Source of the DNA: Candidatus Levyibacteriota bacterium
GTDB lineage: Bacteria; Patescibacteriota; Microgenomatia; Levybacterales; UBA12049
Length of the DNA: 64,000 nt
Direction: 5' to 3'
Assembly: GCA_043823085.1 (NCBI GenBank)
Contig: JBDRBE010000004.1
Span: 5,510 to 69,509, forward strand
In this document: piece by piece, positions 870 to 49,164 of the stretch
Position numbering within the stretch: the stretch's first letter is position 1
Layout of the letters: every line of letters starts with the position of its first letter
Made by a program: the position numbers and the translations under genes
The notes under the pieces: model-generated
What the model was told of the DNA's origin: nothing
The model's database searches: none
Seen by the model: only the letters and a program-made list of their open reading frames with translations

Positions 870-1274
870 CTAAAATGATTTTTTGTAAACAATTTTTCCT
901 TTTTTAATTTTTATTAATCTGTTCGAAGTAACTCTTACGAGAGAATTTTTTACAAAATTTTCATTAATAATACCAAGAAGTTTTTTGCACACTTTGTTTA
1001 TGTTGTTGGGAGTTGCCGATCCAACAGAAATAACTATAACTCCTGGGTGTTTAGTCAAACTGACTTTTTCGTAATAAATAAAATCTCTGTCCAAAGTAAG
1101 AAGAACCCTATTTATCTTTTTACTTTTTTTCAGATGCAATTGGTCTGATTTCCCAACAAGCTTCTTATCATAAGCGTGAACTATTGAGAATCCGAGAAAT
1201 TTTAAATAGCTAACTGTAGGAATAGGGAAACATTCGTCGGCGTAGAGCTGTATACGGGATTTTTTAGAGGGCAT
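870..1274 (-). CDS. DUF5615-family (Mut7-C/PIN-like) putative toxin
   Basis: 134 aa with acidic N-terminus (YADECFP), LTLDRDF and KHPGVIVIS blocks typical of DUF5615. It overlaps the upstream DUF433 gene by 11 nt, a common two-gene arrangement. Confidence 0.6.
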   Translation of the reverse strand: MPSKKSRIQLYADECFPIPTVSYLKFLGFSIVHAYDKKLVGKSDQLHLKKSKKINRVLLTLDRDFIYYEKVSLTKHPGVIVISVGSATPNNINKVCKKLLGIINENFVKNSLVRVTSNRLIKIKKGKIVYKKSF

Positions 1275-3076: not shown

Positions 3077-3150
3077 GCCGCCATCGTCTAGTGGCCTAGG
3101 ACGTCACGTTCTCAACGTGAAGATCGCGGGTTCGACTCCCGCTGGCGGTA
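3077..3150 (+). tRNA. tRNA-Glu (anticodon CUC)
   Basis: Cloverleaf folds by hand: acceptor gccgcca/tggcggt, D-arm gtc-tagtggcctag-gac, anticodon stem tcacg/cgtga with loop ttCTCaa, T-arm gcggg-ttcgact-cccgc. The D-loop resembles bacterial tRNA-Glu. No CCA is encoded. Confidence 0.8.
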
Positions 3151-3263
3151 CTACAATTTTTCCGATACCTCTTATTGAAAAAATAGTTTATTGATTGTAT
3201 GCTTAAATATTTTCAAGAGTGAGATTAATTGTGTCTTGTTGATATTTCTAGTATAATTTTTGT

Positions 3264-15488: not shown

Positions 15489-16181
15489 ATGCTCTCAAAA
15501 CTTAGTCGAATTTTATCTTGGAAATTAATTTTTGTTTTAATTTTTATTAATTTGGCTATTTTAGACTACTTAGCAATCACAGGCATTAATTCTTTTGTAG
15601 AACTTAAAAATCAGATACTCAAGAATGCAAGCATTGTATTGCCAGAAATCGAACAGGTAAAACCAAGCGTTATTTCAACTCCTGCAACAGACGAATCATG
15701 TTCTTTGTCCTGCATAACAAAAATAAATGAAGCTATGTCTTCGTTAAAGCTTTCCTCGCCAACTTCAAAAATTGTTCCTACTTCGCCGTTAAATAATACT
15801 CCTCAATTTTCGTCGCAAGTCAAGGAATTTTTTATTCCGTTTGGTTCAGGGACGAATTCGACAGATGATTGGGCAGATGTTTCGGGTCTTGCGGCAACAA
15901 TAGATACAACACAATATAATCAGATAAAAAGTGCATATTTTGAAGTATCCCTTCGAATACCAACCGGAAATGAAAAAGCTTATGCGAGGCTTTATAATGC
16001 AACGGACAAACACCCTGTCTGGTTTTCGGACGTTTCTATAGAAGGAGGGACTCCGCAGCTTGTAATTTCAAATCCAATTATACTCGATGCTGGTAAAAAA
16101 CTTTACCAGGTCCAAATGAAAACAAGCCTTAAATATCCAGCATTAATCGATCAGGCAAGAGTGCATATTAATACCTATTAG
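15489..16181 (+). CDS. Hypothetical membrane-anchored protein with Ser/Thr/Pro-rich linker
   Basis: N-terminal TM (LIFVLIFINLAIL), then S/T/P-rich low-complexity segment (PSVISTPATDESCS...SSPTSKIVPTSPLNNTPQFSS), then a beta-rich C-terminal domain. Confidence 0.5.
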   Translation: MLSKLSRILSWKLIFVLIFINLAILDYLAITGINSFVELKNQILKNASIVLPEIEQVKPSVISTPATDESCSLSCITKINEAMSSLKLSSPTSKIVPTSPLNNTPQFSSQVKEFFIPFGSGTNSTDDWADVSGLAATIDTTQYNQIKSAYFEVSLRIPTGNEKAYARLYNATDKHPVWFSDVSIEGGTPQLVISNPIILDAGKKLYQVQMKTSLKYPALIDQARVHINTY

Positions 16182-17141
16182 ATGAAAAAAATCGCAATCG
16201 TTATCCTTCATTTTAATGGAGAAAAAGATACACTTCGATGCTTAGATAGTATTGAACAGTTATCCTGCGAAGCAGGATCTCGCTTCGCGAGGCAAGTTAT
16301 CGTGGTTGATAATGGATCAGATGAAGAATTCAAAGTTCCCGCCTTCGCCCCTTCGACTCCGCTCAGGGCTTCGGCGGGCAAACAAAATTCAATTAAGGAA
16401 GTAAAAGTTATTAGGAATGAAAGAAACTTGGGGTTTGCGGGTGGAAATAATGTCGGAATCAAATACGCGCTTGAAAATGGGGCGGATTACGTTCTAATTC
16501 TCAATAATGATACTTTAGTTGATAAAGGTTTGATTACGGAATTATTAAAAGTTGCAGATTCCGATGAAAAGATTGGAATTGTTGCTCCTAAAATATATTT
16601 TGCCAAAGGATTTGAATTCCATAAAGACCGATACCGTGAAAGCGAACGCGGTAGAATAATTTGGTATGCGGGAGGGATCATGGATTGGAAAAATATTATT
16701 GGGCATCATCGGGGAGTTGATGAGGTTGATAAAGGTCAGTTTGAAAAAGTAGAAGAAACGGATTATGCTACCGGTTGTTGCATGTTAATAAAAAAAGAAG
16801 TATTCGAAATGATAGGCTTTTTGGATAAAAAATATTTTTTATATTATGAAGATAGTGATTTCAGCCAAAGATCAAAATTAGTAGGGTATAAAATAAAATT
16901 TGTCCCAAAAGCGATTGTTTGGCACAAAAATGCGGGTTCGGCCGGAGGTTCGGGTTCTTCAATGCAGGATTATTATATAACTCGAAACCGTTTAATTTTT
17001 GGAATAAAATATGCTTCTCTTAGAGCGAAGTTGGCTTTAATAAAAGAAACCATCAAATTGTTTTTTTCCGGAAGACCGTGGCAAAAAAGAGGTGTTTTTG
17101 ATTTTTATTTAATGAAATTTAATAAAGGCAGTTACCGATAA
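16182..17141 (+). CDS. Family-2 glycosyltransferase (rhamnosyltransferase-like; paralog of 57373) carrying GC-rich in-frame insertions
   Basis: Motifs AIVILHFNGE..VIVVDNGSDE..NLGFAGGNN..ILNNDTLV; C-terminal YYEDSDF. Compared with the 57373 paralog it has extra GC-rich segments at 16265-16294 and 16334-16385. Confidence 0.75.
   Translation: MKKIAIVILHFNGEKDTLRCLDSIEQLSCEAGSRFARQVIVVDNGSDEEFKVPAFAPSTPLRASAGKQNSIKEVKVIRNERNLGFAGGNNVGIKYALENGADYVLILNNDTLVDKGLITELLKVADSDEKIGIVAPKIYFAKGFEFHKDRYRESERGRIIWYAGGIMDWKNIIGHHRGVDEVDKGQFEKVEETDYATGCCMLIKKEVFEMIGFLDKKYFLYYEDSDFSQRSKLVGYKIKFVPKAIVWHKNAGSAGGSGSSMQDYYITRNRLIFGIKYASLRAKLALIKETIKLFFSGRPWQKRGVFDFYLMKFNKGSYR
16258..16301. repeat. GC-rich palindromic in-frame insertion (ctgcgaagcaggatctcgcttcgcgaggca) flanked by 7-bp direct repeat agttatc
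   Basis: Two short hairpins (cctgc-gaa-gcagg; ctcgc-ttc-gcgag) in an AT-rich gene, with agttatc on both sides. Encodes SCEAGSRFARQ, which the paralog lacks. Confidence 0.6.
16327..16392. repeat. GC-rich in-frame insertion (cccgccttcgccccttcgactccgctcagggcttcggcgggc) flanked by direct repeat aattcaa
   Basis: Terminal inverted cccgcc/ggcggg. Shares cccttcgact...ctcagg with the intergenic element at 26779-26834. Encodes PAFAPSTPLRASAGKQ, which the paralog lacks. Confidence 0.55.
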
Positions 17142-19098: not shown

Positions 19099-19863
19099 AT
19101 GAAACTTTCAGCGATTGTTATTGCCAAAAACGAAGAGAATATGATTGCGGATTGCTTAGATAGTCTTTCGTTTTGCGATGAGGTTATCGTTATTGATAAT
19201 GGATCAACTGATCGGACATCGGAAATTGCCAAAAAAATGGGAGCAGAGATATTTATCTGTCAAACAGATGATTTTTCAGAGATGAGAAATTTTGGTCTAT
19301 CTAAGGCAAAAAATGAATGGATTTTATATGTGGATGCGGATGAGCGCGTCACAAGTGAGCTTGTACACGATATCAAATATCAAATATTAAATATCAAAGA
19401 CGTAAATATCACTGCGTTTAATATTAAGAGAAAGAATTTTTATTTTGGTTCGCAAGCGGAGAATGAGTGGCCGTACATAGAACATTTAGAGAGACTGTTT
19501 AAAAAAGAAAATCTGAAAGGTTGGAGGGGAAAACTTCATGAGAGTCCTATTATTGAGGGTAAAGTGGGGGAGTTAGAGGGATTTTTATTGCATTATACTC
19601 ATCAGGATCTTTCTTCAATGCTGGAAAAAACCATCGAGTGGTCAAAAACAGAGGCAGAGTTAAGATTAAAAGCAAATCATCCCAAAATGACCTGGTGGCG
19701 GTTTCCCAGGGTAATGGTAAGTGCTTTTTTAAATTCTTATATCAGGCAAGGCGGATGGAAAGTCGGAACAATGGGGTTAGTTGAAAGCATTTATCAATCT
19801 TTTAGTATTTTTATAACCTACGCCAGGCTTTGGGAGTTACAAAATAGAGAAAATGCAAATTAA
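19099..19863 (+). CDS. Family-2 glycosyltransferase, WaaE/KdtX-like
   Basis: Motifs LSAIVIAKNEE..VIVIDNGSTDRT..YVDADERVTSEL. Paralog of 14576 and 41143. Confidence 0.75.
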   Translation: MKLSAIVIAKNEENMIADCLDSLSFCDEVIVIDNGSTDRTSEIAKKMGAEIFICQTDDFSEMRNFGLSKAKNEWILYVDADERVTSELVHDIKYQILNIKDVNITAFNIKRKNFYFGSQAENEWPYIEHLERLFKKENLKGWRGKLHESPIIEGKVGELEGFLLHYTHQDLSSMLEKTIEWSKTEAELRLKANHPKMTWWRFPRVMVSAFLNSYIRQGGWKVGTMGLVESIYQSFSIFITYARLWELQNRENAN

Positions 19864-25833: not shown

Positions 25834-26781
25834 ATGAATATCAGTATTGTTATTCCGAATTATAATGGGGAAGAGTTATTAGAAAAGAATTTACCAAAAG
25901 TAATAGAAGCAATTTCCGAGTATAATGGCGGCGAGATTGAATTTGTTATAGTCGATGACGGTTCGACGGATGATTCAATTGAGAAAATCAAAAATCAAAA
26001 ATCAAAAATCAAAAATACAAATGTAAAATTAAAAATTATTGAAAATTCGAAGAATTTAGGATTTTCCTCAACAGTTAATCGTGGAGTAAAAGAGTCAATG
26101 GGGGAGATTATTATTCTGCTCAATACAGATGTTATACCAGAGAAGAATTTTTTAGGACCTCTTCTTTTGCATTTTAACGATCCAAATGTTTTTGCTGTTG
26201 GATGTATGGATAAAAGCATAGAGGATGGTAAGGTTATTTTGCGAGGCAGGGGGATTGGCAGATGGGAGAGAGGATTTTTTGTTCACAAGAGAGGGGAGGT
26301 TGATAAGAAAGATACGCTTTGGGTCAATGGGGGCAGTGGCGCTTTTAGGAAATCAATTTGGGATAAGATTGGAGGTTTCAATGAACTTTATAATCCTTTT
26401 TATTGGGAAGATATTGATCTTTCCTATCGTGCACAAAAAATGGGCTATAAAATATTATTTGAACCCAAAAGTATAGTTGTTCACGAGCATGAGAAAGGGA
26501 TTATTAAGAAGAAAATGTCTTTATCAAAAATTAAAACAGTCGCCTATCGGAATCAAATAATTTTTACTTGGTTAAACATCACCGATTTAGATTGGCAGTT
26601 TCAGCATTTTTTTTGGTTGCCCTATCATCTCTTTAAATCTTTGATACACAGGAACAGGGAGTTTTTAATTGGTTTTTTTCAAGCTCTAATTTTACTTCCA
26701 AAGATTATAAAAACATCTTCCAAAATACAGAAGTTATTCGTAAAAAAAGATAAGGAAATTATTGGAGATTTTTTAGAATGA
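25834..26781 (+). CDS. Family-2 glycosyltransferase
   Basis: Motifs ISIVIPNYNGEE..FVIVDDGSTDDS..NLGFSSTVNRG..LLNTDV..YWEDIDLSYR. Confidence 0.75.
   Translation: MNISIVIPNYNGEELLEKNLPKVIEAISEYNGGEIEFVIVDDGSTDDSIEKIKNQKSKIKNTNVKLKIIENSKNLGFSSTVNRGVKESMGEIIILLNTDVIPEKNFLGPLLLHFNDPNVFAVGCMDKSIEDGKVILRGRGIGRWERGFFVHKRGEVDKKDTLWVNGGSGAFRKSIWDKIGGFNELYNPFYWEDIDLSYRAQKMGYKILFEPKSIVVHEHEKGIIKKKMSLSKIKTVAYRNQIIFTWLNITDLDWQFQHFFWLPYHLFKSLIHRNREFLIGFFQALILLPKIIKTSSKIQKLFVKKDKEIIGDFLE
25986..26015. repeat. Perfect heptanucleotide tandem repeat (aatcaaa)x4 inside a GT2 CDS
   Basis: aatcaaa aatcaaa aatcaaa aatcaaa aat read directly. Encodes KIKNQKSKIKN in the linker after the DDGS motif. Confidence 0.8.
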
Positions 26782-26834
26782 CCCTTCGACTTTACTCAGG
26801 CCTTTGGCTCTGAGGCTCAGGCTCGAAGAGGTCA
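26779..26834. repeat. GC-rich imperfect hairpin element at a gene 3' end (tgacccttcga...tcgaagaggtca)
   Basis: Outer inverted repeat tgacccttcga/tcgaagaggtca plus an inner hairpin ctcag-gcctttggct-ctgag. Shares cccttcgact...ctcagg with the in-frame insert at 16337-16382. It spans the stop codon of the 25834 gene. May act as a terminator, but there is no downstream T-run. Confidence 0.55.
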
Positions 26835-26853
26835 TAGTGAGTTAATCGAATCT

Positions 26854-27570
26854 ATGAAATTATCAATTATAATTCCGGTTTACAACGAAGAAGGAACAGT
26901 CGCTGAAATTTTAAAGAGAGTAACAGCTTTAAACATTCCCGGTGTAAACAAAGAAGTAATTATTACAGATGATGGATCAACCGATGCAACGGCATCAATA
27001 ATCTCAAATCTCAAATCTCAAATCTCAAATCTCAAAATAATTTATCACAAAAAAAATCAGGGGAAGGGGGCGGCAGTAAGAACTGGAATTAAACATGCAA
27101 GTGGAGATTATATCTTAATTCAAGACGCAGATTTAGAATATAATCCAAAAGATATTATTAGGCTTTTGATACCTGTCAAAGATAAAATTGCCCAAGTAGT
27201 TTATGGTACAAGGCTAAATAGAATGCCTAATTTTACCAGAGATGAAAGAGAGCCACGTTTCCTGCTTCACTATCTTGGCAATAAAGCATTGAGTTTTATT
27301 ACAAGTTTATTGTACGGGCAATGGATTACAGACATGGAAACATGTTATAAACTTTTTCCCAAAAAATCGTTGGAAAAAATAAAACTTAATTCAAAAAGTT
27401 TTGATTTTGAGCCGGAAATTACTGCCAAACTTCTCAAAAATGGATATAAAATACTGGAGATTCCAATAACAACAAACCCAAGAGGATACAAAGAGGGTAA
27501 AAAATTGAATACTTTTAGGGATGGTTCAATAGCCCTTTGGACATTAATGAAATATCGATTTTTTGATTAA
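26854..27570 (+). CDS. Family-2 glycosyltransferase, Dpm1-like
   Basis: Motifs LSIIIPVYNEE..VIITDDGSTDAT..NQGKGAAVRTG..ILIQDADLEYNP. Confidence 0.75.
   Translation: MKLSIIIPVYNEEGTVAEILKRVTALNIPGVNKEVIITDDGSTDATASIISNLKSQISNLKIIYHKKNQGKGAAVRTGIKHASGDYILIQDADLEYNPKDIIRLLIPVKDKIAQVVYGTRLNRMPNFTRDEREPRFLLHYLGNKALSFITSLLYGQWITDMETCYKLFPKKSLEKIKLNSKSFDFEPEITAKLLKNGYKILEIPITTNPRGYKEGKKLNTFRDGSIALWTLMKYRFFD
27001..27035. repeat. Perfect heptanucleotide tandem repeat (atctcaa)x5 inside a GT2 CDS
   Basis: Read directly. Encodes SNLKSQISNLK at the same linker position as the (aatcaaa)x4 repeat in the adjacent GT2. Confidence 0.8.
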
Positions 27571-33224: not shown

Positions 33225-34878
33225 GTTTTTTAATTGGAAGTTAATATTAATTTTTATAATTATTCTTGCGGGATTTTTAAGATTTTATAAGCTTTCATCA
33301 AATCCTCCTTCTCTGACATGGGATGAGGCGGCTTGGGGATATAATGCTTATTCTTTGGGAATTGATGCAAGAGATGAATTCGGCAGATTTCTGCCTTACG
33401 ATTATCTTGAATCATTCGGCGATTTTAAACCTCCTGCCTACGCGTATTTAGACATATTGCCTATAAAAATTTTTGGACTTAATGAATTTGGCGTTCGGTT
33501 TCCTTCAGCGCTTTTTGGCGTGCTAACAGTTTTAGCTACTTATTTTTTGGTAAGAAGAATATTTCCTAATGCGAAAAAATTTTCAATTTTCAATTTTCAA
33601 TTTTCAATAGCGGAGATATCAGCTTTTATTCTTGCTATATCCCCGTGGCATATTTTGCTTTCCCGTGCCGCATTTGAAGCAAACGTGGCTACATTTTTTC
33701 TGGTTACGGGAGTCTGGCTGTTTTTAGCAGGAGCCCATGAGAAAAAATGGTGTTTGCCTTTCTCTATTTTTTTCTTTGTCCTTTCCCTTTATGCCTTTAA
33801 CACTTCAAGGATTGTAGCGCCTCTTCTGGTTTTATTATTAATGATTGGTCTTAGAAAACAGCTTTTAGAGCGAAAAAAAGAAGCAATAATAGCTTGTATT
33901 GTCGGAGTAATTCTTGTTTTGCCAATAGCACGATTTTTACTTTCGCCTCAGGCAAGTCTTCGATTTCGCGAGGTAAATATTTTTTCGGATGCAAGCGTAA
34001 TTAAAACAGTTAATCAGGAAATTAAAAATGATAATAATGCTTTTTGGTCAAAAATTATTCATAACAGGCGTTTTGCATATGGGGTTGAGTATTTTAAACA
34101 TTATTTTGACAACCTTAGTCCCGACTTTTTGTTTATAAAAGGGGATGGTAATCCAAAATTCTCGATTCAGACAGTTGGGCAGATGTATCTTTGGGAAATA
34201 CCCTTTTTTATCGGAGGAATTTTGTTCATTTTTCGAAAAAGGCAAGGATATTGGTGGATTGTTCCGTTCTGGCTTGTTTTAGGAATTATTCCGGCAGCAA
34301 CCGCTCGAGAAACGCCGCATGCATTAAGAATAGAAACAACTCTGCCAACGTTTCAAATTCTAACAGCCATAGGCTTAGCGACGGCAATAGAATTTTTATT
34401 GGCAGTGAAGAATAAAGGATTGATTACAAAACTATTAAAACTATTTGTGATATGTTATTCGCTATTCGCTATTTTCAATTTTTCATATTTTTATCATGAT
34501 TATTTTACTCATTATCCGATACAATTTTCCGGAGAATGGCAATATGGATACAAAGAATCAATTGCTTTCGTTTCCGAAAATTTAAGTAAATATGATAAGG
34601 TTGAAATTACCGACGCACTTGGTAGACCTTATATTTATTATTTATTTTACACAAAAGAAAATCCCCAGGATTTTAGAGCATCTTTAAAAGTCAAAAGAGA
34701 TGTTTTTGGCTTTGTTAATGTAACTGGATTTGGTAAATATGAGTTTAAAAGTAATCTATCGATTGATAAAAATACCCTTTTTATTAACTCGCCTGTCAAC
34801 GTGCCAAAAAATGCGGAAGCGCTAAAAACGTTTTACCTTTTAGACGGTAATTCTATACTTTCTGCGTATTCATTATGA
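33217..34878 (+). CDS. ArnT/PMT-like GT-C glycosyltransferase D2
   Basis: LRFYKLSSNPPSLTWDEAAWGYNAYSLGIDARDEFG..FKPPAYAYL..FGLNEFGVRFPSALFGV. Tandem paralog of D1 and D3. Confidence 0.75.
   Translation: MSKFFNWKLILIFIIILAGFLRFYKLSSNPPSLTWDEAAWGYNAYSLGIDARDEFGRFLPYDYLESFGDFKPPAYAYLDILPIKIFGLNEFGVRFPSALFGVLTVLATYFLVRRIFPNAKKFSIFNFQFSIAEISAFILAISPWHILLSRAAFEANVATFFLVTGVWLFLAGAHEKKWCLPFSIFFFVLSLYAFNTSRIVAPLLVLLLMIGLRKQLLERKKEAIIACIVGVILVLPIARFLLSPQASLRFREVNIFSDASVIKTVNQEIKNDNNAFWSKIIHNRRFAYGVEYFKHYFDNLSPDFLFIKGDGNPKFSIQTVGQMYLWEIPFFIGGILFIFRKRQGYWWIVPFWLVLGIIPAATARETPHALRIETTLPTFQILTAIGLATAIEFLLAVKNKGLITKLLKLFVICYSLFAIFNFSYFYHDYFTHYPIQFSGEWQYGYKESIAFVSENLSKYDKVEITDALGRPYIYYLFYTKENPQDFRASLKVKRDVFGFVNVTGFGKYEFKSNLSIDKNTLFINSPVNVPKNAEALKTFYLLDGNSILSAYSL
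33579..33606. repeat. Perfect heptanucleotide tandem repeat (attttca)x4 inside an ArnT-like CDS
   Basis: Read directly. Encodes KFSIFNFQFSI. Confidence 0.8.
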
Positions 34879-36503
34879 GTAAAAAAATTATTATTATTTT
34901 ATTTCTAATTCTTGCGATTGCTACAGTTTTACGTTTTTATAAACTTGGTGATATCCCGCCGTCACCGGATTGGGATGAAGTTGCTTTAGGTTATGATGCA
35001 TATTCTATAATTCATACAGGACGTGATGAATACGGAAAGTTTTTACCGGTTGTTTTGCGATCATTTGATGATTATAAACCGGCTTTATATGCTTATCTTT
35101 CTGTCCCGTCGGTTTTCTTTTTTGGACTAAATGAATTTAGCGTTCGGTTTCCATCCGCCTTATTAGGTGTTTTAACTGTTTTTGCAACATTTTTTCTTGT
35201 AAAGGAATTATTTAAAAGAAACGAGATAGCGCTTCTTGCATCATTTTTTTTGGCGATTTCTCCCTGGCATATTCAGTTTTCAAGAGTTGGTTTCGAATCA
35301 AATATAGGTGTAGCTTTTAATGTTTTTATGGCGCTTTTTTTTATTAAAGCATTTAGAAAACCCTACTTTTTACTTTTTTCTGCGTTTTTTGCCGGCTTAA
35401 ATCAGTATATTTATCAAAGCGATCGGGTTTTTACGCCACTTTTACTCTTAGCGCTGGTCATTATTTATTGGAAAGACTTGTTTAAGATTTCTAAAAAATA
35501 TCTTTTGACATCGGTGATTTTAGGACTAATTGTCGTTTTGCCAATGATTATTTACATCGCAACCGATAAACAAGCTCTTCTTCGTGTTTCTGGAACAAGT
35601 ATTTTTTCAAGCCAAACCGAATTGCTCAAAAATGACATTCCAAAACTTCTTCGCGATACGGCAAAGAATGATAAAATTGGATTAATTCTTGACAACAGAC
35701 GTTTCACTTTTGCTAAAATAATAGCATCAAATTATCTTTCGCATTTTAATCTCAATTGGCTTTTTATAACCGGTGATATTGCAAGACATCATGCTCCGCA
35801 AATGGGCCTTTTGTATCTTTTTGAATTACCCTTTCTTTTTATTGGGTTATACATCTTTATTTTTGGTCAATACTCAAAAAAAACAAAGTTATTAATAATT
35901 GCTTGGTTTTTGATTACTCCAATTCCGGCCTCAATTACGACCGGCGTTCCGCATGCAGTAAGGACTTTAAATTTTCTTCCGACATTTCAAATTTTTATAG
36001 CCATAGGATTAATCACAGCGATAAAATTACTATCAAACATTAAGTTTTGGAAAATATTTGCTATTTGCTATTTGCTATTTGCTATCTTTAATTTTTCATA
36101 TTATCTCAACCAGTATTTTGTGCAATTGAATTACTTTAACTCACAGGAATGGCAGTATGGTTATAAACAAGCTGTTAGTGAGGTAAAAAATATTGGGGGG
36201 AATTATCCAAAAATTGTTGTTTCGGACAAAGAGCCATTAGATAAATCTTACATGTTTTTTCTATTTTATCTTCAATATCCGCCTTTTGAATATCAAAAAG
36301 TTGGTCAATATCAATCAGGTGGATTTGCCGCCCATCATAATTTTGATAAATATGAATTCAGGCCAATAGATTGGCAAAAAGATTCTAAAGCAAAAAACGT
36401 TTTATATATTGGAACACCTGGAGAATTTCCGCCAGATATTGATGCTTTAAAAGTAATTTATAATAAAGACGGCACGCCAGCGATAAAATTAGTTAGGACT
36501 TAA
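34875..36503 (+). CDS. ArnT/PMT-like GT-C glycosyltransferase D3
   Basis: LRFYKLGDIPPSPDWDEVALGYDAYSIIHTGRDEYG..YKPALYAYL..FGLNEFSVRFPSALLGV. Confidence 0.75.
   Translation: MSKKIIIILFLILAIATVLRFYKLGDIPPSPDWDEVALGYDAYSIIHTGRDEYGKFLPVVLRSFDDYKPALYAYLSVPSVFFFGLNEFSVRFPSALLGVLTVFATFFLVKELFKRNEIALLASFFLAISPWHIQFSRVGFESNIGVAFNVFMALFFIKAFRKPYFLLFSAFFAGLNQYIYQSDRVFTPLLLLALVIIYWKDLFKISKKYLLTSVILGLIVVLPMIIYIATDKQALLRVSGTSIFSSQTELLKNDIPKLLRDTAKNDKIGLILDNRRFTFAKIIASNYLSHFNLNWLFITGDIARHHAPQMGLLYLFELPFLFIGLYIFIFGQYSKKTKLLIIAWFLITPIPASITTGVPHAVRTLNFLPTFQIFIAIGLITAIKLLSNIKFWKIFAICYLLFAIFNFSYYLNQYFVQLNYFNSQEWQYGYKQAVSEVKNIGGNYPKIVVSDKEPLDKSYMFFLFYLQYPPFEYQKVGQYQSGGFAAHHNFDKYEFRPIDWQKDSKAKNVLYIGTPGEFPPDIDALKVIYNKDGTPAIKLVRT
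36056..36083. repeat. Perfect heptanucleotide tandem repeat (atttgct)x4 inside an ArnT-like CDS
   Basis: Read directly. Encodes IFAICYLLFAIF. Confidence 0.8.
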
Positions 36504-41142: not shown

Positions 41143-41910
41143 ATGCCAAAGATTTCAGTCGTCTTAGCTGTTCTTAACGAGGAAAAAAATCTTAGCACTT
41201 GTCTTGATTCGGTTAAAGATTTTGCCGATGAAATAGTCATTGTTGATGGCAGTTCTACCGATAAAACCGTTGAGATTGCAAAAAAGTACGGTGCAAGAAT
41301 TGAAATAACTGCCAATCTGCAAAACTTCCATATCAATAAACAAAAGGCAATAGATATGGCAAATGGAGAATGGGTTTTGCAACTTGACGCGGACGAAAGA
41401 GTCACACCGTCGCTTTGCGACGAAATCAAAAATCAAATATCAAAAATCAAAGACAATGAGGTGAATGGGTACTGGATTCCGAGAAAAAATTGGTTCTTGG
41501 GAAGATTTTTGATGAAGGGCGGCCAATATCCGGATTATCAATTAAGATTTTATAAAAAAGGAAAAGGCAGACTGCCGCAAAAGGATGTTCATGAACAGAC
41601 AATTGTTCAAGGGCAGGTTGGATATTTAAAGAATCCGCTTGTTCATTTTGCCGACCCAAACTTTTCCCGTTATCTTTTACGTTTCAACCGATACACGGAT
41701 TTTATGGCAAATGAATTAAAAAATAAAAAAATTGGATTAAATCCTCTGATTCCTATCCGATATCTTTTAATTTCACCAGTTTGGTGGTTTCTTTTAACTT
41801 ACATTAGACATAAAGGGTTTGTAGATAGTTGGCAGGGATTTGTTTTTTCTTTTTTTTCCGCTTTGAGATTTCCTGTTTCTTATGTAAAATATATTAAGCT
41901 ACTCTTTTAA
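41143..41910 (+). CDS. Family-2 glycosyltransferase, WaaE/KdtX-like
   Basis: Motifs ISVVLAVLNEE..IVIVDGSSTDKT..QLDADERVTPSL..NGYWIPRKN..YPDYQLRFYKKG. Confidence 0.75.
   Translation: MPKISVVLAVLNEEKNLSTCLDSVKDFADEIVIVDGSSTDKTVEIAKKYGARIEITANLQNFHINKQKAIDMANGEWVLQLDADERVTPSLCDEIKNQISKIKDNEVNGYWIPRKNWFLGRFLMKGGQYPDYQLRFYKKGKGRLPQKDVHEQTIVQGQVGYLKNPLVHFADPNFSRYLLRFNRYTDFMANELKNKKIGLNPLIPIRYLLISPVWWFLLTYIRHKGFVDSWQGFVFSFFSALRFPVSYVKYIKLLF
41424..41451. repeat. Heptanucleotide tandem repeat (aatcaaa)x4 with one variant unit, inside a GT2 CDS
   Basis: aatcaaa aatcaaa tatcaaa aatcaaa. Same unit as 25986-26013. Encodes EIKNQISKIKDN before NGYWIP. Confidence 0.7.
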
Positions 41911-41920
41911 AGATTTAAAT

Positions 41921-42931
41921 ATGAAAATTTTAGTTACTGGCGGAGGAGGCTATATTGGAAGTTTTATGACCAAAAGACTTCTAGATGATGGTTTTGAAGT
42001 TGTTGTGGCCGACAGCTTCGAAAGAGGATATAAGGAAGTTGTAGATAAAAGAGCAAAATTATTAATTGGAAATTTACTTGACAAAGAATTCGTTAAAAAT
42101 ATTTTTTTGTCAGATGATATTGAAGCTGTTATTAATTTTGCAGGATACATCTCAATGGCCGAGTCGGTTGAAAATCCTGGAATTTACTTTGAAAATAACG
42201 TTTTTGGAGCATTAAATCTTTTAGAGGAAATGAGAAAAAGAGAAATAAAGAAATTTATATTTTCTTCAACAGCAGGCGTTTATGGAAATCCTAAAAGTTT
42301 GCCAATTCCTGAAGATCATCCCAAAAATCCTACAAATCCATATGGAGAAAGTAAATTAATGGTTGAAAAAATTCTTTTATGGTATAAGCCCTTTATAAAT
42401 TTTGTCAGTCTTCGATACTTTAACGCGGCAGGTGCATCTTTTGATGCAACTTTAGGAGAAAATCACAAACCGGAAACCCACATTATTCCAAATGCAATAA
42501 ACGCAGCACTTACTAATTCCGAATTTACTCTTTATGGCGATGATTACAATACTCCCGATGGTACCTGCATAAGAGATTATATTCATGTAGTAGATTTGGT
42601 TGATTCTCATGCGTTGGCTTTAAAAAAGCTGCAAACAGAAAATGGCGGCCAGGCTTTTGGCGGGCAGGGTTTTTTCTATAATGTCGGAACAGGAAAAGGT
42701 TATTCAAATAAAGAGGTGTTTGAAATGGTAAAGAAAATTTCAGGAATTGATTTTAAAGTTAATATTTCAGGAAGGAGATCGGGCGATGCGGAAAAATTAA
42801 TAGCCGACCCGACAAAAATTAAAAATGAACTCATGTTTATTCCGAAATATTCAGACCTTGAAACTTTGGTTAAAACCGCATGGCAATGGCACTCCAAAAT
42901 ATCAAATACCAAATACCAAATATCAAAATGA
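41921..42931 (+). CDS. galE: UDP-glucose 4-epimerase (GalE-type extended SDR)
   Basis: Motifs MKILVTGGGGYIGS, YGESKLMVEKIL (YxxxK), LRYFN, GDDYNTPDGTCIRDYIHVVDL match E. coli GalE closely. Confidence 0.8.
   Translation: MKILVTGGGGYIGSFMTKRLLDDGFEVVVADSFERGYKEVVDKRAKLLIGNLLDKEFVKNIFLSDDIEAVINFAGYISMAESVENPGIYFENNVFGALNLLEEMRKREIKKFIFSSTAGVYGNPKSLPIPEDHPKNPTNPYGESKLMVEKILLWYKPFINFVSLRYFNAAGASFDATLGENHKPETHIIPNAINAALTNSEFTLYGDDYNTPDGTCIRDYIHVVDLVDSHALALKKLQTENGGQAFGGQGFFYNVGTGKGYSNKEVFEMVKKISGIDFKVNISGRRSGDAEKLIADPTKIKNELMFIPKYSDLETLVKTAWQWHSKISNTKYQISK
42898..42925. repeat. Heptanucleotide tandem repeat (aataYca)x4 at the galE 3' end / start of the next gene
   Basis: aatatca aatacca aatacca aatatca read directly. 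Encodes the galE C-terminal tail ISNTKYQISK. Confidence 0.7.
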
Positions 42932-46482: not shown

Positions 46483-48100
46483 ATACATATTATTAGTATT
46501 AATAATTAGTTTCTTTTCGGTCCTGGCATTATTGCCTCACGGTTTGCTGCCAACCCATGATGGCGAGTATCATGTCATAAGATTTTACGAGTTTGATAAA
46601 GTTTTACGAGACGGAAATTTTTATCCGAGATGGGCTCCCGATTTAAATAATGGTTTTGGCGTGCCGCTTTTTAACTATGTTTATCCGTTGCCAAATTACT
46701 TTGCTTCTTTGCTTCATCTCTTTGGGATAAGTTTTATTGATTCCTTTAAGCTAAACATGTTTTTTGCATCGATTTTTGGAACTATATTTTTCTATCTTTG
46801 GACAAGACGATTTTGGGGAAATTTGGGAGGTGTTGTTTCTTGCGCCTTCTATTCGTTTTCTCCATATCGGTTTGTTGATGTTTACATTAGGGGGTCTGTA
46901 GGTGAAATTTGGGCGCTTGCTTTTTTCCCGGCCTTTCTTTGGTCAATAACCAATTTCATAAAAACAAAAAGCATGAAGGATTTTGTTCTGTCAAGTTTAT
47001 TTTTATCGGCATTAATTTTTTCTCATAATATCTTGGCGTTAATGTTTTTCTTTTTCTCAATGTCGTATGTAGCCTTTTTAATTTTAAAAGAAGAAAATAA
47101 AAAAGATGTAGTATTAAAAATTTTACTCATAATATTTTTAGGATTAGGTTTGTCTTCGATTTTTTGGCTTCCGGCAGTTTTAGAAACAAAGTTCGTTACA
47201 GGGCTTCAGATTTATAATGTAAAAGAAAATTTTCCAGATCTTTTTGCGCTTTTAATTCCATCTTGGGGGTCGGGTTTTTCAGGGGGAAGTCTTCAAAATC
47301 AAATGTCTTTTCAAATAGGGATTGCTAATTTGTTTGCAGTTTTTTCATCTGTAATTATTTTGGTTTTATCGATAAGGAAAAAAGCTGAATACAAAAGCTC
47401 AATATTCTTTTTTCTAACTTGGTTTGTAATTACATTTTTTTTGATGCTTAAAACTTCCTTGCCGATTTGGGAAAAAGTTCCTTTTATGGATTATTTCCAA
47501 TTTCCTTGGCGTTTCTTGAGTCTTGAAATTGTTGTAGCGTCTTTTCTAGCAGGTAGTATCGTAAAAGCCCACAAGCCAAAATTACTGGCGGCATTTTTTA
47601 TTATTTTAGTTTTTTTGTTAGGCATAGGATATGCAAAACCAGCTTATTATTTTAACAGAGATGATAATTATTATGTGACTCGTTCTAATTTTATAGACGG
47701 GACAAATAGTCCGGGAAATTTTTTCAACACAATTTGGATGAATAATCAGTTGGCAAAACAAAAAGAAAAAATTATTCTCAAAAAAGAAGACGGAGAAATT
47801 AATTCGTTTAAAATTAAGTCAACAATTTACGAGTTTAATGTTTTTATAAAAAAAGATTTAAAAATTGCTGTAAATACTGCTTATTTTCCGGGTTGGATTG
47901 CTACTGTTGATGGAAGAAACGTTGAAACGTTTTACGATAAAGACGGACTTCTTACTTTTTCCGTTCCCAAGGGAAACCATAATATAATGGTTAGGTTTTC
48001 AGAAACGCCAATTAGAAAAATCGCATTAGTTTGGACTTTAACATCAATTTGTCTATTGGCTTTATTTGGTGTAAGCCGCTATGTTAAAATTAAAAAATGA
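46460..48100 (+). CDS. YfhO-related large membrane protein, family B (B4)
   Basis: PTHDGEYHVIRFYEFDKVLRDGNFYPRWAPDLNNGFGVPLFNYVYP; C-terminal YFPGWIATVDGRNVE..VPKGNHNIMVRF plus a terminal TM. Start uncertain: ATG 46460 chosen; the ORF begins at 46424. Confidence 0.6.
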   Translation: MARFLKFKYILLVLIISFFSVLALLPHGLLPTHDGEYHVIRFYEFDKVLRDGNFYPRWAPDLNNGFGVPLFNYVYPLPNYFASLLHLFGISFIDSFKLNMFFASIFGTIFFYLWTRRFWGNLGGVVSCAFYSFSPYRFVDVYIRGSVGEIWALAFFPAFLWSITNFIKTKSMKDFVLSSLFLSALIFSHNILALMFFFFSMSYVAFLILKEENKKDVVLKILLIIFLGLGLSSIFWLPAVLETKFVTGLQIYNVKENFPDLFALLIPSWGSGFSGGSLQNQMSFQIGIANLFAVFSSVIILVLSIRKKAEYKSSIFFFLTWFVITFFLMLKTSLPIWEKVPFMDYFQFPWRFLSLEIVVASFLAGSIVKAHKPKLLAAFFIILVFLLGIGYAKPAYYFNRDDNYYVTRSNFIDGTNSPGNFFNTIWMNNQLAKQKEKIILKKEDGEINSFKIKSTIYEFNVFIKKDLKIAVNTAYFPGWIATVDGRNVETFYDKDGLLTFSVPKGNHNIMVRFSETPIRKIALVWTLTSICLLALFGVSRYVKIKK

Positions 48101-49164
48101 AAGTTGCTATTGATATATCGCCTCTCAAGTCAGGTCATAAGGTGAGAGGAGTGGGGTTTTATTTAGAAAATTTAAAAAAATCACTTGTTGAATACGAAAA
48201 TTCTATTGAGTATGTTTTTTTTGATGAAGAAAAAGAAATACCTAATAATATTGATCTTGTTCACTATCCTTATTTTGACCCCTTTTTTTTAACATTACCA
48301 ATATTCAAGAAATACAAAACTATTGTTACAGTTCACGATTTAACTCCTCTTGTTTTCCCCAAAGCTTTTCCGAAGGGATTAAAAGGGAATATTAAATGGC
48401 AGATGCAAAAGATAGCGTTAAGAACAACCTGTGCAGTTATCACTGATTCCAAAGCTTCAAAATCAGATATCGTAAAGTTTACAGGAATAAATGAAGAAGA
48501 AATTCACGTAGTTTACTTGGCGGCAGGGGAAGAATTTATGAAGATGGAAGATGCCCGCCTGCCGGACGGGCAGGGAAGATGGAAGATGGAAATTAGAAAA
48601 AAATATAATTTGCCAGAGAAATTTGTTTTATATGTTGGAGATGTGACATGGAATAAGAATTTGCCAAGACTAGTGGAAGCTTTGAAGAAAACCAATTTAC
48701 CCTTGGTTATGGTTGGTAAAGCAATTGCAAGTAATGATTTTGATAAGAATAATTTTTGGAATTCTGATTTGACTAAAGTTCAAAATTTAATAAAAGGTGA
48801 TGAAAGATTTTTAAGGCTTGGATTTGTTCCTACAATTGATTTAGTTTGTCTTTATAATCTTGCAACTGTTTTTGTTATGCCATCTCTTTATGAAGGTTTT
48901 GGGTTACCGGTATTGGAAGCCATGAGTTGTGGTTGTCCAGTTGTGACAACGAAAGAGGGTTCATTAAAAGAAATCGCCGGGGATGCGGCGTTTTTTGTTG
49001 AAGCTTACGATACGGAAAGTATTGCAGACGGAATTAATAAAGTTTTTAGCGATAAGTTAATTCAGGAGAATTTATCTAGAGAAGGGTTAGTTTGGGCTAA
49101 AAATTTTAAGTGGAAAAAAACAGCTAAAAATACAGCCGCTGTTTATAAAAGTTTAACTTCATGA
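48097..49164 (+). CDS. GT4-family glycosyltransferase carrying a GC-rich in-frame insertion
   Basis: YEGFGLPVLEAMSCGCPVVTTKEGSLKEIAGDAA is the GT4 signature. It contains the palindromic insert at 48554-48575. Confidence 0.75.
   Translation: MKVAIDISPLKSGHKVRGVGFYLENLKKSLVEYENSIEYVFFDEEKEIPNNIDLVHYPYFDPFFLTLPIFKKYKTIVTVHDLTPLVFPKAFPKGLKGNIKWQMQKIALRTTCAVITDSKASKSDIVKFTGINEEEIHVVYLAAGEEFMKMEDARLPDGQGRWKMEIRKKYNLPEKFVLYVGDVTWNKNLPRLVEALKKTNLPLVMVGKAIASNDFDKNNFWNSDLTKVQNLIKGDERFLRLGFVPTIDLVCLYNLATVFVMPSLYEGFGLPVLEAMSCGCPVVTTKEGSLKEIAGDAAFFVEAYDTESIADGINKVFSDKLIQENLSREGLVWAKNFKWKKTAKNTAAVYKSLTS
48540..48588. repeat. GC-rich hairpin (cccgCCTGCCggacgGGCAGGg) flanked by 13-14 bp direct repeat (g)aagatggaagatg, in-frame within a GT4 CDS
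   Basis: Direct repeat at 48541-48553 and 48576-48588 with a 6-bp stem / 5-nt loop hairpin between them. Encodes KMEDARLPDGQGRWKMEI. Structure resembles a target-site duplication. Confidence 0.6.

Follow-up and report, generated by a model that had tools for sequence, protein, structure and literature searches.

Small GC-rich hairpin modules read in frame within glycosyltransferase genes of a Candidatus Levyibacteriota genome

Results

The window, by which we mean the whole stretch of 64,000 nucleotides analyzed here (Candidatus Levyibacteriota bacterium, contig JBDRBE010000004.1), contains two glycosyltransferase genes, termed GT2 (family 2) and GT4, that harbor GC-rich hairpin modules of 21-42 nt translated as extra loops. 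Both the genes and the GC-rich cores belong to a 60-kb envelope-glycan island. The GT2 host protein matches Pfam PF00535 (E = 3e-16) and is 100% identical to a protein from a Candidatus Levyibacteriota MAG, encoded on a 431-kb contig; its length of 319 aa compares with mostly 300-307 aa in orthologs. A preliminary description of this DNA had given the remainder of the gene as ~30% GC. The patches indeed stand out, but the figure is 33% without them and 36% with them, in a window of 32.2% GC. Cores contain 63-86% GC in a 32% GC genome, and their hairpins are more stable than those of shuffled sequences (z = -2.2 to -3.8). All are multiples of three in length and lack stop codons in the frame used, the basic units being stop-free in five or six frames. 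Feature positions are compiled in Table 1.

Table 1 Modules, adjacent repeats and related features of the window
Feature	Position	Strand	Remarks
GT2 host gene (family-2 glycosyltransferase), carrier of elements 1 and 2	16182..17141	+	319 aa ORF
Left AGTTATC heptamer, adjoining element 1	16258..16264	+	
Element 1, 30-nt GC-rich double hairpin, CTGCGAAGCAGGATCTCGCTTCGCGAGGCA	16265..16294	+	63% GC
Right AGTTATC heptamer, adjoining element 1	16295..16301	+	37 nt from left copy, not a multiple of three
Left AATTCAA repeat near element 2, within K-F-x-I heptamer-array site	16327..16333	+	
Element 2, 42-nt composite, 76% GC	16338..16379	+	translated as PAFAPSTPLRASAG
Inner 21-nt C core of element 2, CCCTTCGACTCCGCTCAGGGC	16349..16369	+	
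Right AATTCAA repeat near element 2	16386..16392	+	59 nt spacing
GC-rich codons of NAGSAGGSGS motif, outside the feature	16932..16957	+	
Decayed C-like cores in an intergenic inverted doublet, a long hairpin like a REPIN	26779..26836	.	between two GT2 genes
(GAAGATG)x2 heptamer array left of A core	48540..48553	+	
Third in-gene copy, 21-nt A core CCCGCCTGCCGGACGGGCAGG	48554..48574	+	GT4 gene 48097-49164; translated (D)ARLPDGQ(G)
(GAAGATG)x2 + GAA heptamer array right of A core	48575..48591	+	

Element 1 was found as initially described, namely as a GC-rich double hairpin enclosed by AGTTATC copies. Its two hairpins, CCTGC-GAA-GCAGG followed by CTCGC-TTC-GCGAG, lie next to each other, and a DNA fold of -10.5 kcal/mol (z = -3.8) was matched by none of 200 shuffles. 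The element is translated as (S)CEAGSRFAR(Q), is devoid of stop codons in all six frames and maps to a loop between helix 14-25 and strand 35-44 in the AF2 model. Taking out the 30-nt core leaves (AGTTATC)x2 and preserves the reading frame. Element 1 behaves like a simple insertion only on the assumption of an unusually short ancestral loop. The right half is similar to B-type cores at 18143 of locus L010 and 11653 of locus L027. Neither the central 22-mer of element 1 nor the B core has an exact match in IMG/VR.

The second insert, with arms CCCGCC...GGCGGG and flanking AATTCAA copies, was likewise recovered, although not with its reported length: ~52 nt is the distance between the repeats, while the GC-rich part comprises 42 nt, which we infer to be the inserted unit. 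Element 2 consists of an outer hairpin module (CCCGCCTTCGCC...GGCTTCGGCGGG) with a second module in its loop, and its RNA fold reaches -20.6 kcal/mol (z = -2.4). In IMG/VR, 56 viral stretches contain the 26-nt outer module (CCCGCCTTCGCCRAGGCTTCGGCGGG) by itself. Residues 55-68 of the protein have AF2 pLDDT values below 50 and form a loop between strands 35-44 and 74-79. At the position of the left repeat, orthologs harbor (AAATTCA/G/C)n arrays; no empty allele of element 2 was seen. A third GC-rich patch further downstream in the gene, also pointed out in the preliminary description, was dismissed as an element. Since its NAGSAGGSGS motif is invariant in 31 homologs (columns N250-S259) and the DNA is unstructured (z = -0.15), it is ordinary coding sequence.

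The copy in the GT4 gene, an A core (DNA fold z = -3.0), is embedded in a heptamer array. Without the 21 nt of the core, the gene reads KMEDGRWKMEI, matching KMENGKWKMEI of the ortholog, and the junction turns into a perfect 4.4-copy array. This site is occupied by an A core also in L287, where it holds CCCGCCTGCCGGCGAGGCAGG, by a C core in L288 and by other sequences in P0196 and P0208, and its length differs by steps of 7 or 14 aa. Further members of the A-core family are present in L027, L042, L048 and L070. The array flanks of the window and L287 are 100% identical, yet the GT4 proteins share only 66% identity; because the insert is common to genes this diverged, some copies are old. The intergenic doublet between two GT2 genes includes a C-like match at 26782-26802 and has an RNA fold of -30.5 kcal/mol.

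The peptides SCEAGSRFARQ and PAFAPSTPLRASAG, said to be missing from a paralog at 57373, are indeed absent there, with gaps at both insert positions. As this paralog is only 29% identical, true orthologs provide the better test, and most of ~110 GT2 homologs lack both peptides, the two sites being length-variable loops. Site 2 of GT2, the position of element 2, is occupied in different ways: by a C core in plus orientation in the window (frame PSTPLRA) and in L083 and L084 (frame PFGFAQG), by a reversed C core in L082 (PALSEAEG), by an A-like core in L081 and by a B-type peptide in P0017. These differences in orientation, frame and core identity, seen in sequence comparison, point to independent insertions. 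Taken over all loci, C cores are translated as PSTPLRA, PFGFAQG or LRIRSGR and, when reversed, as PALSEAEG. The identical 21-mer of the window recurs at L082 3388-3408, in a different GT2 gene of the closest relative. Modules are nested in element 2, L081 and L048. Three of the four window copies and 13 of ~15 copies at related loci lie inside ORFs, at a low overall density of ~15 cores per 1.3 Mb of Levybacteria-type DNA. The same insert was found in independent assemblies (L083 from ENA, L084 from JGI). No strictly recent presence/absence polymorphism was identified, the difference between L001 and L083 falling within a 500-nt divergent recombinant patch. A pairing constraint between positions 8 and 11 of the C core was rejected, with variant counts of 96/49/43/19 and no covariation.

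Direct repeats of 7 nt do accompany elements 1 and 2 (AGTTATC and AATTCAA), as had been noted. Flanking repeats of at least 7 nt were found at 7 of 14 validly placed cores, with a 13-nt repeat at a fifteenth core in L081; random positions of these genomes show such repeats in only 2.6% of cases. Around half of the related cores lack any flanking repeat. Repeat lengths at cores vary from 0 to 14 nt (7, 9, 13 and 14 seen) and often correspond to two heptamer units. Their interpretation as target-site duplications did not hold, as each of the three window copies would be thrown out of frame if a core were taken out together with one repeat. None of the repeat spacings (37, 59 and 35 nt) is divisible by three, and the inserted unit therefore cannot be a core with one repeat. 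Compensating frameshifts (37 + 59 = 96) were ruled out, VVDNGS between the two elements being in the correct frame. For the GT4 copy, target-site duplication was rejected as well: the (GAAGATG)x4 array pre-exists in orthologs and excision of 21 nt alone restores their sequence. Removal of 21 nt (window GT4, L008) or 24 nt (L083) yields a perfect array of 4.4-4.9 copies along with the ortholog peptide.

Six of 16 core junctions lie inside heptamer arrays, although these make up only 0.23% of the DNA, and modules sit preferentially at the exact center of an array or in the loop of another hairpin. Heptamer arrays are abundant in ORFs of these genomes, nearly all in long ORFs and with ~4.4 copies; core-free (AAATTTC)x4 arrays exist in L001 at the GT2 site and in many other genes. 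Alternatively, the preference for array centers could arise if a single process generated both arrays and cores.

The modules have additional copies not only within the window but also in related genomes and well outside this lineage. The C-core family pattern is present in at least 120 metagenome and 69 viral stretches, mostly of 55-73% GC, and the identical 21-mer occurs 41 times in the metagenome and viral loci examined. Copies in these metagenome and viral stretches have sharp borders followed by a conserved AGGC tail, and their flanks are unrelated. Named hosts include Sphingomonas, Trichlorobacter and Nostoc, and a C-core copy is present in plasmids of Nostoc flagelliforme and Anabaena. 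Cyanobacteria and proteobacteria thereby join many high-GC environmental contigs and phage-like contigs as carriers of identical units. In Sphingomonas, C units form inverted doublets between genes, at 23 and 27 places per plasmid, and the Nostoc plasmid copy adjoins a (CTCCTGA)n array. One 21-mer is common, base for base, to organisms of 32% and 70% GC. The feature is not peculiar to candidate-phylum genomes: the cores are cosmopolitan, with the majority of copies in high-GC DNA. In the literature searched, no paper tied such elements to candidate-phylum genomes or printed the 15-mers.

No transposase, reverse transcriptase or integrase was detected among 40 scanned ORFs of the window, and 3 Mb of loci showed no linkage of cores with genes for RAYT/IS200 or GIY-YIG proteins. 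With approximate query sequences of IS200 TnpA and E. coli RAYT, tblastn gave a single weak match in 3 Mb, away from any core, and no match in the window, the 64 kb of the source genome that were covered; a RAYT/IS200 enzyme might still operate in trans. In Sphingomonas, inverted C units stand on either side of a small GIY-YIG gene, and GIY-YIG genes are located near GC hairpins in L141 and L045. The nuclease was rejected as driver because a single gene compares with 27 repeat places in the Sphingomonas replicon, where doublets elsewhere are ordinary intergenic ones, and because such a gene is present at only 2 of ~190 core loci and is lacking in the window. We judge the association to be coincidental. 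None of 12 core-bearing loci gave an Rfam match that passed the gathering thresholds, and around 16100-16500 no relevant family appeared at E <= 10.

Discussion

The modules have their closest precedents in the small dispersed repeats (SDRs) of Nostocaceae, in REP/REPIN elements and in Rickettsia palindromic elements. We know of no enzyme for the SDRs. A 2008 study by Elhai et al. (Genome Res 18:1484) is said to have associated these repeats with tandem heptamers. SDR4-6 are described as hairpin units of ~21-27 nt that nest and insert precisely, without target duplication, into palindrome centers (PMC3116915, PMC4390886, PMC5861425), with SDR5 inserting between nt 3 and 4 of HIP1 (PMC4390886). 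Compared with such descriptions, the modules reported here are similar as hairpins of 21 nt plus an AGG(C) tail (C unit) or 26 nt (outer module) that nest and insert cleanly, excision of 21 or 24 nt restoring arrays. Unlike SDRs, they occur in a candidate-phylum genome, in proteobacteria and in soil and viral contigs, and lie inside ORFs that are translated. REP and REPIN sequences are GC-rich imperfect palindromes of ~20-30 nt, mobilized by RAYT (Y1) transposases, whose genes REPs often flank, extragenic and specific to species or genera (PMC3116915). Likeness to them extends to short GC-rich palindromes, the inverted doublets of Sphingomonas, one intergenic doublet in the window and the lack of target duplication; in contrast, the present modules are intragenic, single, translated and identical across phyla, with few copies in Levybacteria-type DNA. 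The direct repeats beside the modules are heptanucleotide simple-sequence repeats (SSRs), in which period 7 is over-represented and four units are the commonest length, as in Xanthomonas (PMC4692102). Published bacterial heptanucleotide SSRs are mostly intergenic (PMC4692102, PMC4679880, citing Mrazek et al. 2007), whereas the arrays analyzed here almost all reside in long ORFs, with ~4.4 copies (a pristine copy plus 21 nt), and act as landing sites for GC cores.

In byps, the ribosome hops over the element from one matching codon to the other, and their length need not be a multiple of three. The GC clusters and byps of yeast mitochondria, attributed to Weiller 1989 and to Lang et al. 2014 in PNAS, are reportedly GC-rich hairpins of ~30-55 nt, some of them in coding sequence. 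The modules resemble these organellar elements as short GC-rich hairpins in an AT-rich genome, some of them coding, but are read through with the frame kept. Programmed bypass elements (gene 60, byps) were rejected, as cores are multiples of three, stop-free in the frame used and flanked by sequence in the ortholog frame.

To our knowledge, no transposase has been assigned to Rickettsia palindromic elements (RPE) either. The modules share with RPE a palindromic sequence, an in-frame position in unrelated genes of a reduced genome and tolerance by the protein structure. RPE are ~150 bp long, genus-restricted and each encode a conserved peptide in one frame (PMC10969869). The modules, in contrast, measure 21-42 nt, are GC-rich in an AT-rich host, are read in several frames and both orientations, and are cosmopolitan. 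Membership in the RPE, as initially suggested, is implausible from the size difference alone (21, 24, 30 and 42 nt versus ~100-150 bp), and reading further sets the modules apart, since frames and orientations vary.

Collectively, the observations of the preliminary description were confirmed for the two inserts, their repeats and their translation, but not for the third patch or for spacing and size; its interpretation stands with respect to dispersed, in-frame palindromic mini-elements and falls with respect to target-site duplications and RPE. Neither outcome named beforehand as contradicting it, peptides common to every ortholog or a lack of additional copies, was observed. We favor, with a probability of roughly 0.6, a reading in which elements 1 and 2 and the A core at 48554-48574 represent copies of dispersed repeats of very small size that are not specific to a lineage and are tolerated in frame. 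The basic unit is a strongly GC-rich, hairpin-forming sequence of ~21-27 nt, and units can nest in each other's loops. In this gene-dense genome of 32% GC, copies that persist add up to a multiple of three nucleotides (21, 24, 30, 42 nt); being also stop-free, they cause neither frameshift nor termination, and 7-14 extra residues are translated. The modules lie in surface loops of envelope-glycan enzymes. Insertion would proceed without a target duplication of its own, the adjacent direct repeats representing slippage-prone heptanucleotide tandem arrays. By analogy with what is thought for REP/REPIN and cyanobacterial SDRs, modules probably insert into single-stranded or slipped DNA structures. 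They may represent non-autonomous selfish or neutral DNA moved in trans, and their alien base composition suggests a recent or repeated horizontal origin.

Several other explanations were weighed. Without any transposition, short foreign GC-rich or hairpin fragments might serve as filler where DNA is repaired or replication restarts at slippage-prone heptamer arrays and hairpin loops, with selection retaining those that are stop-free and a multiple of three. The alien composition of the cores (63-86% GC) and their identity to units common in high-GC organisms are compatible with this, as are their position at centers of arrays or loops, where DNA slips or becomes single-stranded, the failure to find an enzyme or target motif, and microhomology between core ends and flanks in L027 (GAGC) and L081 (AGGC). 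Random capture, however, would not keep choosing the same few sharp-bordered units, and those of Sphingomonas behave as a classical amplified REP/REPIN family; precise ends in both orientations suggest that the unit itself is recognized, which leaves filler capture unlikely. We consider quite unlikely that classical miniature elements of the RPE or MITE kind were inserted by a transposase with 7-bp target-site duplication. Palindromic, in-frame, multi-copy sequences with exact 7-nt repeats at both elements, and repeats of 7, 9, 13 and 14 nt at other cores, far above chance, would fit such elements. Yet the 37-, 59- and 35-nt spacings would shift the frame although flanks are in the ortholog frame, the GT4 repeat precedes the core in orthologs, whose sequence returns upon excision of 21 nt, repeat lengths range from 0 to 14 nt, and core-free (AAATTTC)x4 arrays are found in L001 and many genes. 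No transposase was found in the window, and size and frame behavior differ from RPE (PMC10969869). MITEs in particular were rejected on the variable repeats (0 to 14 nt), their pre-existence in orthologs and their out-of-frame spacings; no parent IS was seen.

A function selected by the host, as phase-variation switch or mRNA structure signal in surface-glycan genes or through translational bypass as in T4 gene 60 and byp, appears improbable. It would be in line with the location in the 60-kb envelope-glycan island, with frame shifts caused by gain or loss of units in heptamer arrays, with hairpins more stable than shuffles, and with array flanks 100% identical between the window and L287 in proteins only 66% identical. 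Against it, every core is crossed by a stop-free reading frame that stays in register with the orthologs and makes bypass unnecessary, and a ribosome that hopped from one 7-nt repeat to the next would lose the frame. Moreover, identical units are found in unrelated genes, intergenic DNA and unrelated phyla, one site accommodates different core families, and most orthologs function without cores. Ordinary loop sequence peculiar to the lineage, or an artifact of sequencing or assembly, could be entertained since both sites are variable loops in a metagenome-assembled genome. This is essentially refuted by an identical 21-mer that recurs across unrelated phyla and genes, in either orientation and in several frames, by the insert in independent ENA and JGI assemblies, by inserts common to diverged orthologs, and by junctions internal to k141 contigs.

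The favored reading of small dispersed modules may be taken further, although we advance this extension only tentatively and regard it as more likely wrong than right. Hairpin units of 21-27 nt, such as CCCTTCGRCTYCGCTCAGGGC(AGG) and CCCGCCTTCGCCRAGGCTTCGGCGGG, would be the smallest known horizontally mobile DNA, crossing phyla and phages without a transposase of their own by using universal replication or repair machinery where heptamer arrays slip or hairpins form loops; in genes of ultra-small candidate-phylum bacteria they would be kept as stop-free cassettes, a multiple of three in length, that add loops of 7 residues. A 21-mer common to organisms of 32% and 70% GC implies that a 21-27-nt unit has spread horizontally or else that some universal mechanism generates it. 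"Nano" repeats, earlier reported from Nostocaceae only, would become a cross-phylum phenomenon. The modules account for many odd low-complexity peptides in metagenome-predicted proteins (PFDFAQGR, LRLRSGQ, PALSEVEG, LPAGRQ and others) and call for caution, as GC-rich k-mers identical across phyla can mislead assembly, binning and homology searches. For the organism itself, they offer a concrete path for protein loops to evolve in quanta of 7 residues. Selfish or neutral DNA appears able to colonize even the most streamlined, gene-dense genomes, hidden in coding sequence, which is possible because the units are length-neutral multiples of three and stop-free.

Two GC-rich hairpin elements reside in a glycosyltransferase gene

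Gene 16182-17141 encodes a family-2 glycosyltransferase (GT2) with 100% identity to a protein on a 431-kb contig of a Candidatus Levyibacteriota genome. It lies in a ~60-kb envelope-glycan island of GT2, GT4, YfhO, PMT_2, PTPS_related and flippase-like genes, in a window (64 kb, 32.2% GC) from a metagenome-assembled genome of Candidatus Levyibacteriota (Microgenomates, candidate phyla radiation). The island spans nearly all 64 kb (at least ten GT2, two GT4, five YfhO-like, five PMT_2, four PTPS_related and three flippase-like genes), almost entirely on the + strand, and one tRNA gene is present (tRNA-Glu, 3077-3151). None of 40 scanned window ORFs encodes a transposase, reverse transcriptase or integrase. 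Near the window start, GC-rich direct repeats of ~45 nt (CTCCACGCCCC...CCCCCAAAAGCGGA; 816-848 and 1561-1602) flank a ~750-nt segment between the lon and DUF3147 genes; the segment encodes DUF5615 (873-1274, minus strand) and resembles a small inserted cassette.

The preliminary description of two palindromic GC-rich patches within the GT2 gene, in frame and each beside 7-nt repeats, is borne out by folds, translation and coordinates. The DNA fold of element 1 has a z-score of -3.8, with 0 of 200 shuffles as stable, and RNA folding of element 2, a check suggested at the outset, gave a z-score of -2.4. Both elements are translated in frame and are placed in loops by an AlphaFold model (pLDDT <50 at residues 55-68, between strands 35-44 and 74-79). 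The outer hairpin of element 2, the 26-nt CCCGCCTTCGCCRAGGCTTCGGCGGG, was found in 56 viral stretches, making it another cosmopolitan unit. Element 2 is accordingly a composite of nested units: the 21-nt C core, described below, occupies the loop of the 26-nt one. At 42 nt overall the composite keeps the frame, whereas the 26-nt unit by itself would not. Further nesting of units was seen in the related loci L081 and L048. Removing the 30 nt of element 1 leaves (AGTTATC)x2 and keeps the frame, but the resulting loop falls eight residues short of that in most orthologs, and only homolog P0052 has a comparably short one. Element 1 is the least clean insertion case, with replacement, or insertion then deletion, as possible alternatives. 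A third GC-rich patch of the gene (16932-16957), also mentioned initially, is ordinary coding sequence: it encodes NAGSAGGSGS, invariant in 31 homologs, and has no fold.

Positions of hairpin units, flanking repeats and heptamer arrays in the window
Feature	Position	Description
Element 1	16265-16294	30 nt, 63% GC, two adjoining hairpins
AGTTATC repeat pair	16258 and 16295	flanks element 1
Element 2	16338-16379	42 nt, 76% GC, arms CCCGCC/GGCGGG
AATTCAA repeat pair	16327 and 16386	flanks element 2
Third in-gene copy	48554-48574	CCCGCCTGCCGGACGGGCAGG, in GT4 gene 48097-49164
Heptamer array	19370-19398	
Heptamer array	25984-26016	
Heptamer array	27000-27036	
Heptamer array	33578-33608	
Heptamer array	36055-36085	
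Heptamer array	41423-41451	
Heptamer array	42897-42927	

Orthologous sites carry different units in both orientations and several frames

Ortholog comparison, as the preliminary description had called for, showed that most GT2 orthologs are 300-307 aa long and have neither peptide (top protein matches and 80 loci, one genome per species), both sites being loops of variable length. Two ortholog matches, L024 10001-11378 and L027 10001-11211, extend over 1378 and 1211 nt where about 909 nt would be expected; these two orthologs are thereby implied to contain large insertions (an intron, an intein or some other element).

The decisive observation for insertion is the DNA-level comparison at site 2, the loop position of element 2. 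The window carries the 21-mer CCCTTCGACTCCGCTCAGGGC (the C core) in frame PSTPLRA, L083 and L084 carry CCCTTCGGCTTCGCTCAAGGC in a different frame (PFGFAQG), the closest homolog, L082, has the C core in reverse (PALSEAEG), and L081 has a hairpin of another sequence. Peptide PASQRGEQ of homolog P0017 belongs to a third core family, and that family is also represented in an unrelated gene of L027. The exact C 21-mer of the window recurs in another GT2 gene of L082, and a relative with three mismatches in L010. Because one DNA unit appears in both orientations and several frames, a conserved peptide is ruled out, and repeated insertion of a DNA element fits.

The proposed search for further copies was likewise fruitful, yielding a third in-window copy, in a GT4 gene, as well as copies in related loci and in metagenome and viral stretches. 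At the GT4 site, L287 has an A-type core and L288 a C core, other orthologs have different GC-rich peptides, and lengths change in steps of 7 or 14 residues. Between the window (48540-48591) and L287, the 14 + 17 nt of heptamer flank are 100% identical and every difference falls within the core. The NAD-dependent epimerase gene (41921-42931) holds a GC-rich patch at 42644-42669, GGCGGCCAGGCTTTTGGCGGGCAGGG (ENGGQAFGGQGFF), which may be a further, decayed core. An assembly artefact was rejected, as the identical insert is found in independent assemblies (L083, ENA; L084, JGI) and the GT4 insert is common to genes of the window and L287 whose proteins are only 66% identical. So far, insert lengths of 21, 24, 30 and 42 nt have been measured, each a multiple of three, and every such unit is stop-free in five or six frames.

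Cores are associated with coding heptamer arrays

The 7-bp repeats had been taken for target-site duplications. Repeat spacings of 37, 59 and 35 nt mean that excising a core plus one repeat would shift the frame, yet conserved sequence on either side of each core is in one and the same frame. Removal of exactly 21 nt from the GT4 copy gives KMEDGRWKMEI (KMENGKWKMEI in orthologs) and joins its flanks into a perfect (GAAGATG)x4.4 array. Given these out-of-frame spacings and the near-ortholog peptide, the repeats are not target-site duplications. Perfect heptamer arrays also result in L008 minus 21 nt (4.9 copies) and L083 minus 24 nt (4.7 copies), and GT2 site 2 of L001 is a core-free (AAATTTC)x4.4. 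L001 (631-8719) and L083 (1-8113) are ~99.9% identical across 8.1 kb save a ~500-nt patch (L083 ~1458-1950), ~22% divergent, whose start coincides exactly with the array/core site in the GT2 gene; the patch reflects either mosaic recombination, the array being the breakpoint, or an assembly that mixed strains.

Heptamer arrays also characterise these genomes independently of the cores. Across 1.26 Mb of Levybacteria-type DNA, a count of exact triple tandem repeats gave 24 for period 7 and 0, 4, 0 and 1 for periods 5, 6, 8 and 9, making 7 the only over-represented period in this range. A looser scan returned 116 arrays in L001-L084, most commonly of 4.3-4.7 copies and nearly all within long ORFs; seven arrays lie in the window. 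Their units are mostly TCAAA[AT][AT]-like, or the reverse TATTTGC, and are translated into 7-residue cyclic peptides such as KYQISNI and YLLFAIC. Heptamer repeats are over-represented in bacteria, four units being commonest (PMC4692102, PMC4679880); what is unusual here is the coding location. Cores are strongly associated with the arrays: 6 of 16 core junctions lie within arrays, which make up only 0.23% of the DNA, and a flanking repeat of at least 7 nt accompanies 7 of 14 validly placed cores versus 2.6% of random sites. A 15th core (L081), mis-placed in this test, has a 13-nt repeat. Roughly half the cores lack a flanking repeat entirely.

The units are cosmopolitan

Scanning with CCCTTCGRCTYCGCTCARGGC identified more than 120 metagenome stretches among the matches listed, and 69 IMG/VR stretches; nearly all of those listed are contigs of 55-73% GC. 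Chance matches are excluded by 192 distinct contexts in which the C unit is sharply bordered, is followed by a conserved AGGC tail and has unrelated flanks. The exact variant of the window is present 41 times among these loci. Plasmids of Sphingomonas parapaucimobilis carry the C unit at 23 and 27 places, where it forms REPIN-type inverted doublets between genes, and a Trichlorobacter lovleyi plasmid carries it at six; Nostoc, Anabaena and Planktothrix plasmids carry it too. On Nostoc flagelliforme plasmid pNFSY08 (L289, 401-460), the C core GACCCTTCGACTGCGCTCAGGGCAT immediately adjoins a (CTCCTGA/CCCCTGA)x4 array, so the core-array association recurs in a cyanobacterium. The window itself holds a REPIN-like form of the C family, an intergenic inverted doublet of partly AT-decayed C-like cores between two GT2 genes (26779-26836; RNA -30.5 kcal/mol). 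No Rfam family covers these units.

Relation to known repeats and possible mechanism

The finding holds up and is of greater interest than the preliminary description suggested, and the elements are classified with very small dispersed hairpin repeats, an already known kind. Size, palindromic form and the Sphingomonas-type doublets recall REP/REPIN sequences, which are, however, extragenic and lineage-specific. Organelles offer an analogue in mitochondrial GC clusters and byps. The closest precedent is the small dispersed repeats (SDR) of Nostocaceae, reported by Elhai et al. in 2008. SDR are mobile 21-27-nt units that insert precisely into the HIP1 palindrome centre (PMC4390886) and are reported absent outside Nostocaceae (PMC5861425). 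In-frame residence within genes is shared with Rickettsia palindromic elements, the kind originally suggested, but those measure about 150 bp and encode one conserved peptide each (PMC10969869), so that membership fails on size and on frame behaviour; the RPE-like mechanism with 7-bp target duplication is not supported. In the literature searched, elements of this sort are not described for candidate-phylum genomes.

As discrete units, the elements either move between sites or are acquired again and again; they insert in either orientation without producing a duplication, and nest both in the loops of hairpins and at the centres of arrays. Both locations would be transiently single-stranded or slipped DNA, which suggests either a single-strand mechanism targeted to DNA structure, as has been proposed for REP/REPIN and cyanobacterial SDR elements, or capture of the units during repair at such sites. 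A search for RAYT/IS200 was essentially negative. A GIY-YIG nuclease, considered as the enzyme, was rejected because its adjacency to the units proved coincidental. A small GIY-YIG gene in L045 (200-760) is wedged in beside a tRNA gene; its other side is occupied by a GC-rich hairpin and an incomplete copy of the tRNA 5' half. Base composition alien to the host and identity to units of high-GC organisms would argue for a horizontal origin.

Within coding DNA only 3n-long, stop-free versions were observed. The units may be non-autonomous selfish or neutral DNA, in which GC-richness would keep stop codons away and the 21-nt quantum would avoid frameshifts; they could thereby persist in genes of a ~90%-coding genome, tolerated as loops of 7-14 residues. 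Three features stand out: translated, frame-neutral residence within genes of a streamlined genome, tight association with coding heptamer arrays, and units base-for-base identical across phyla.
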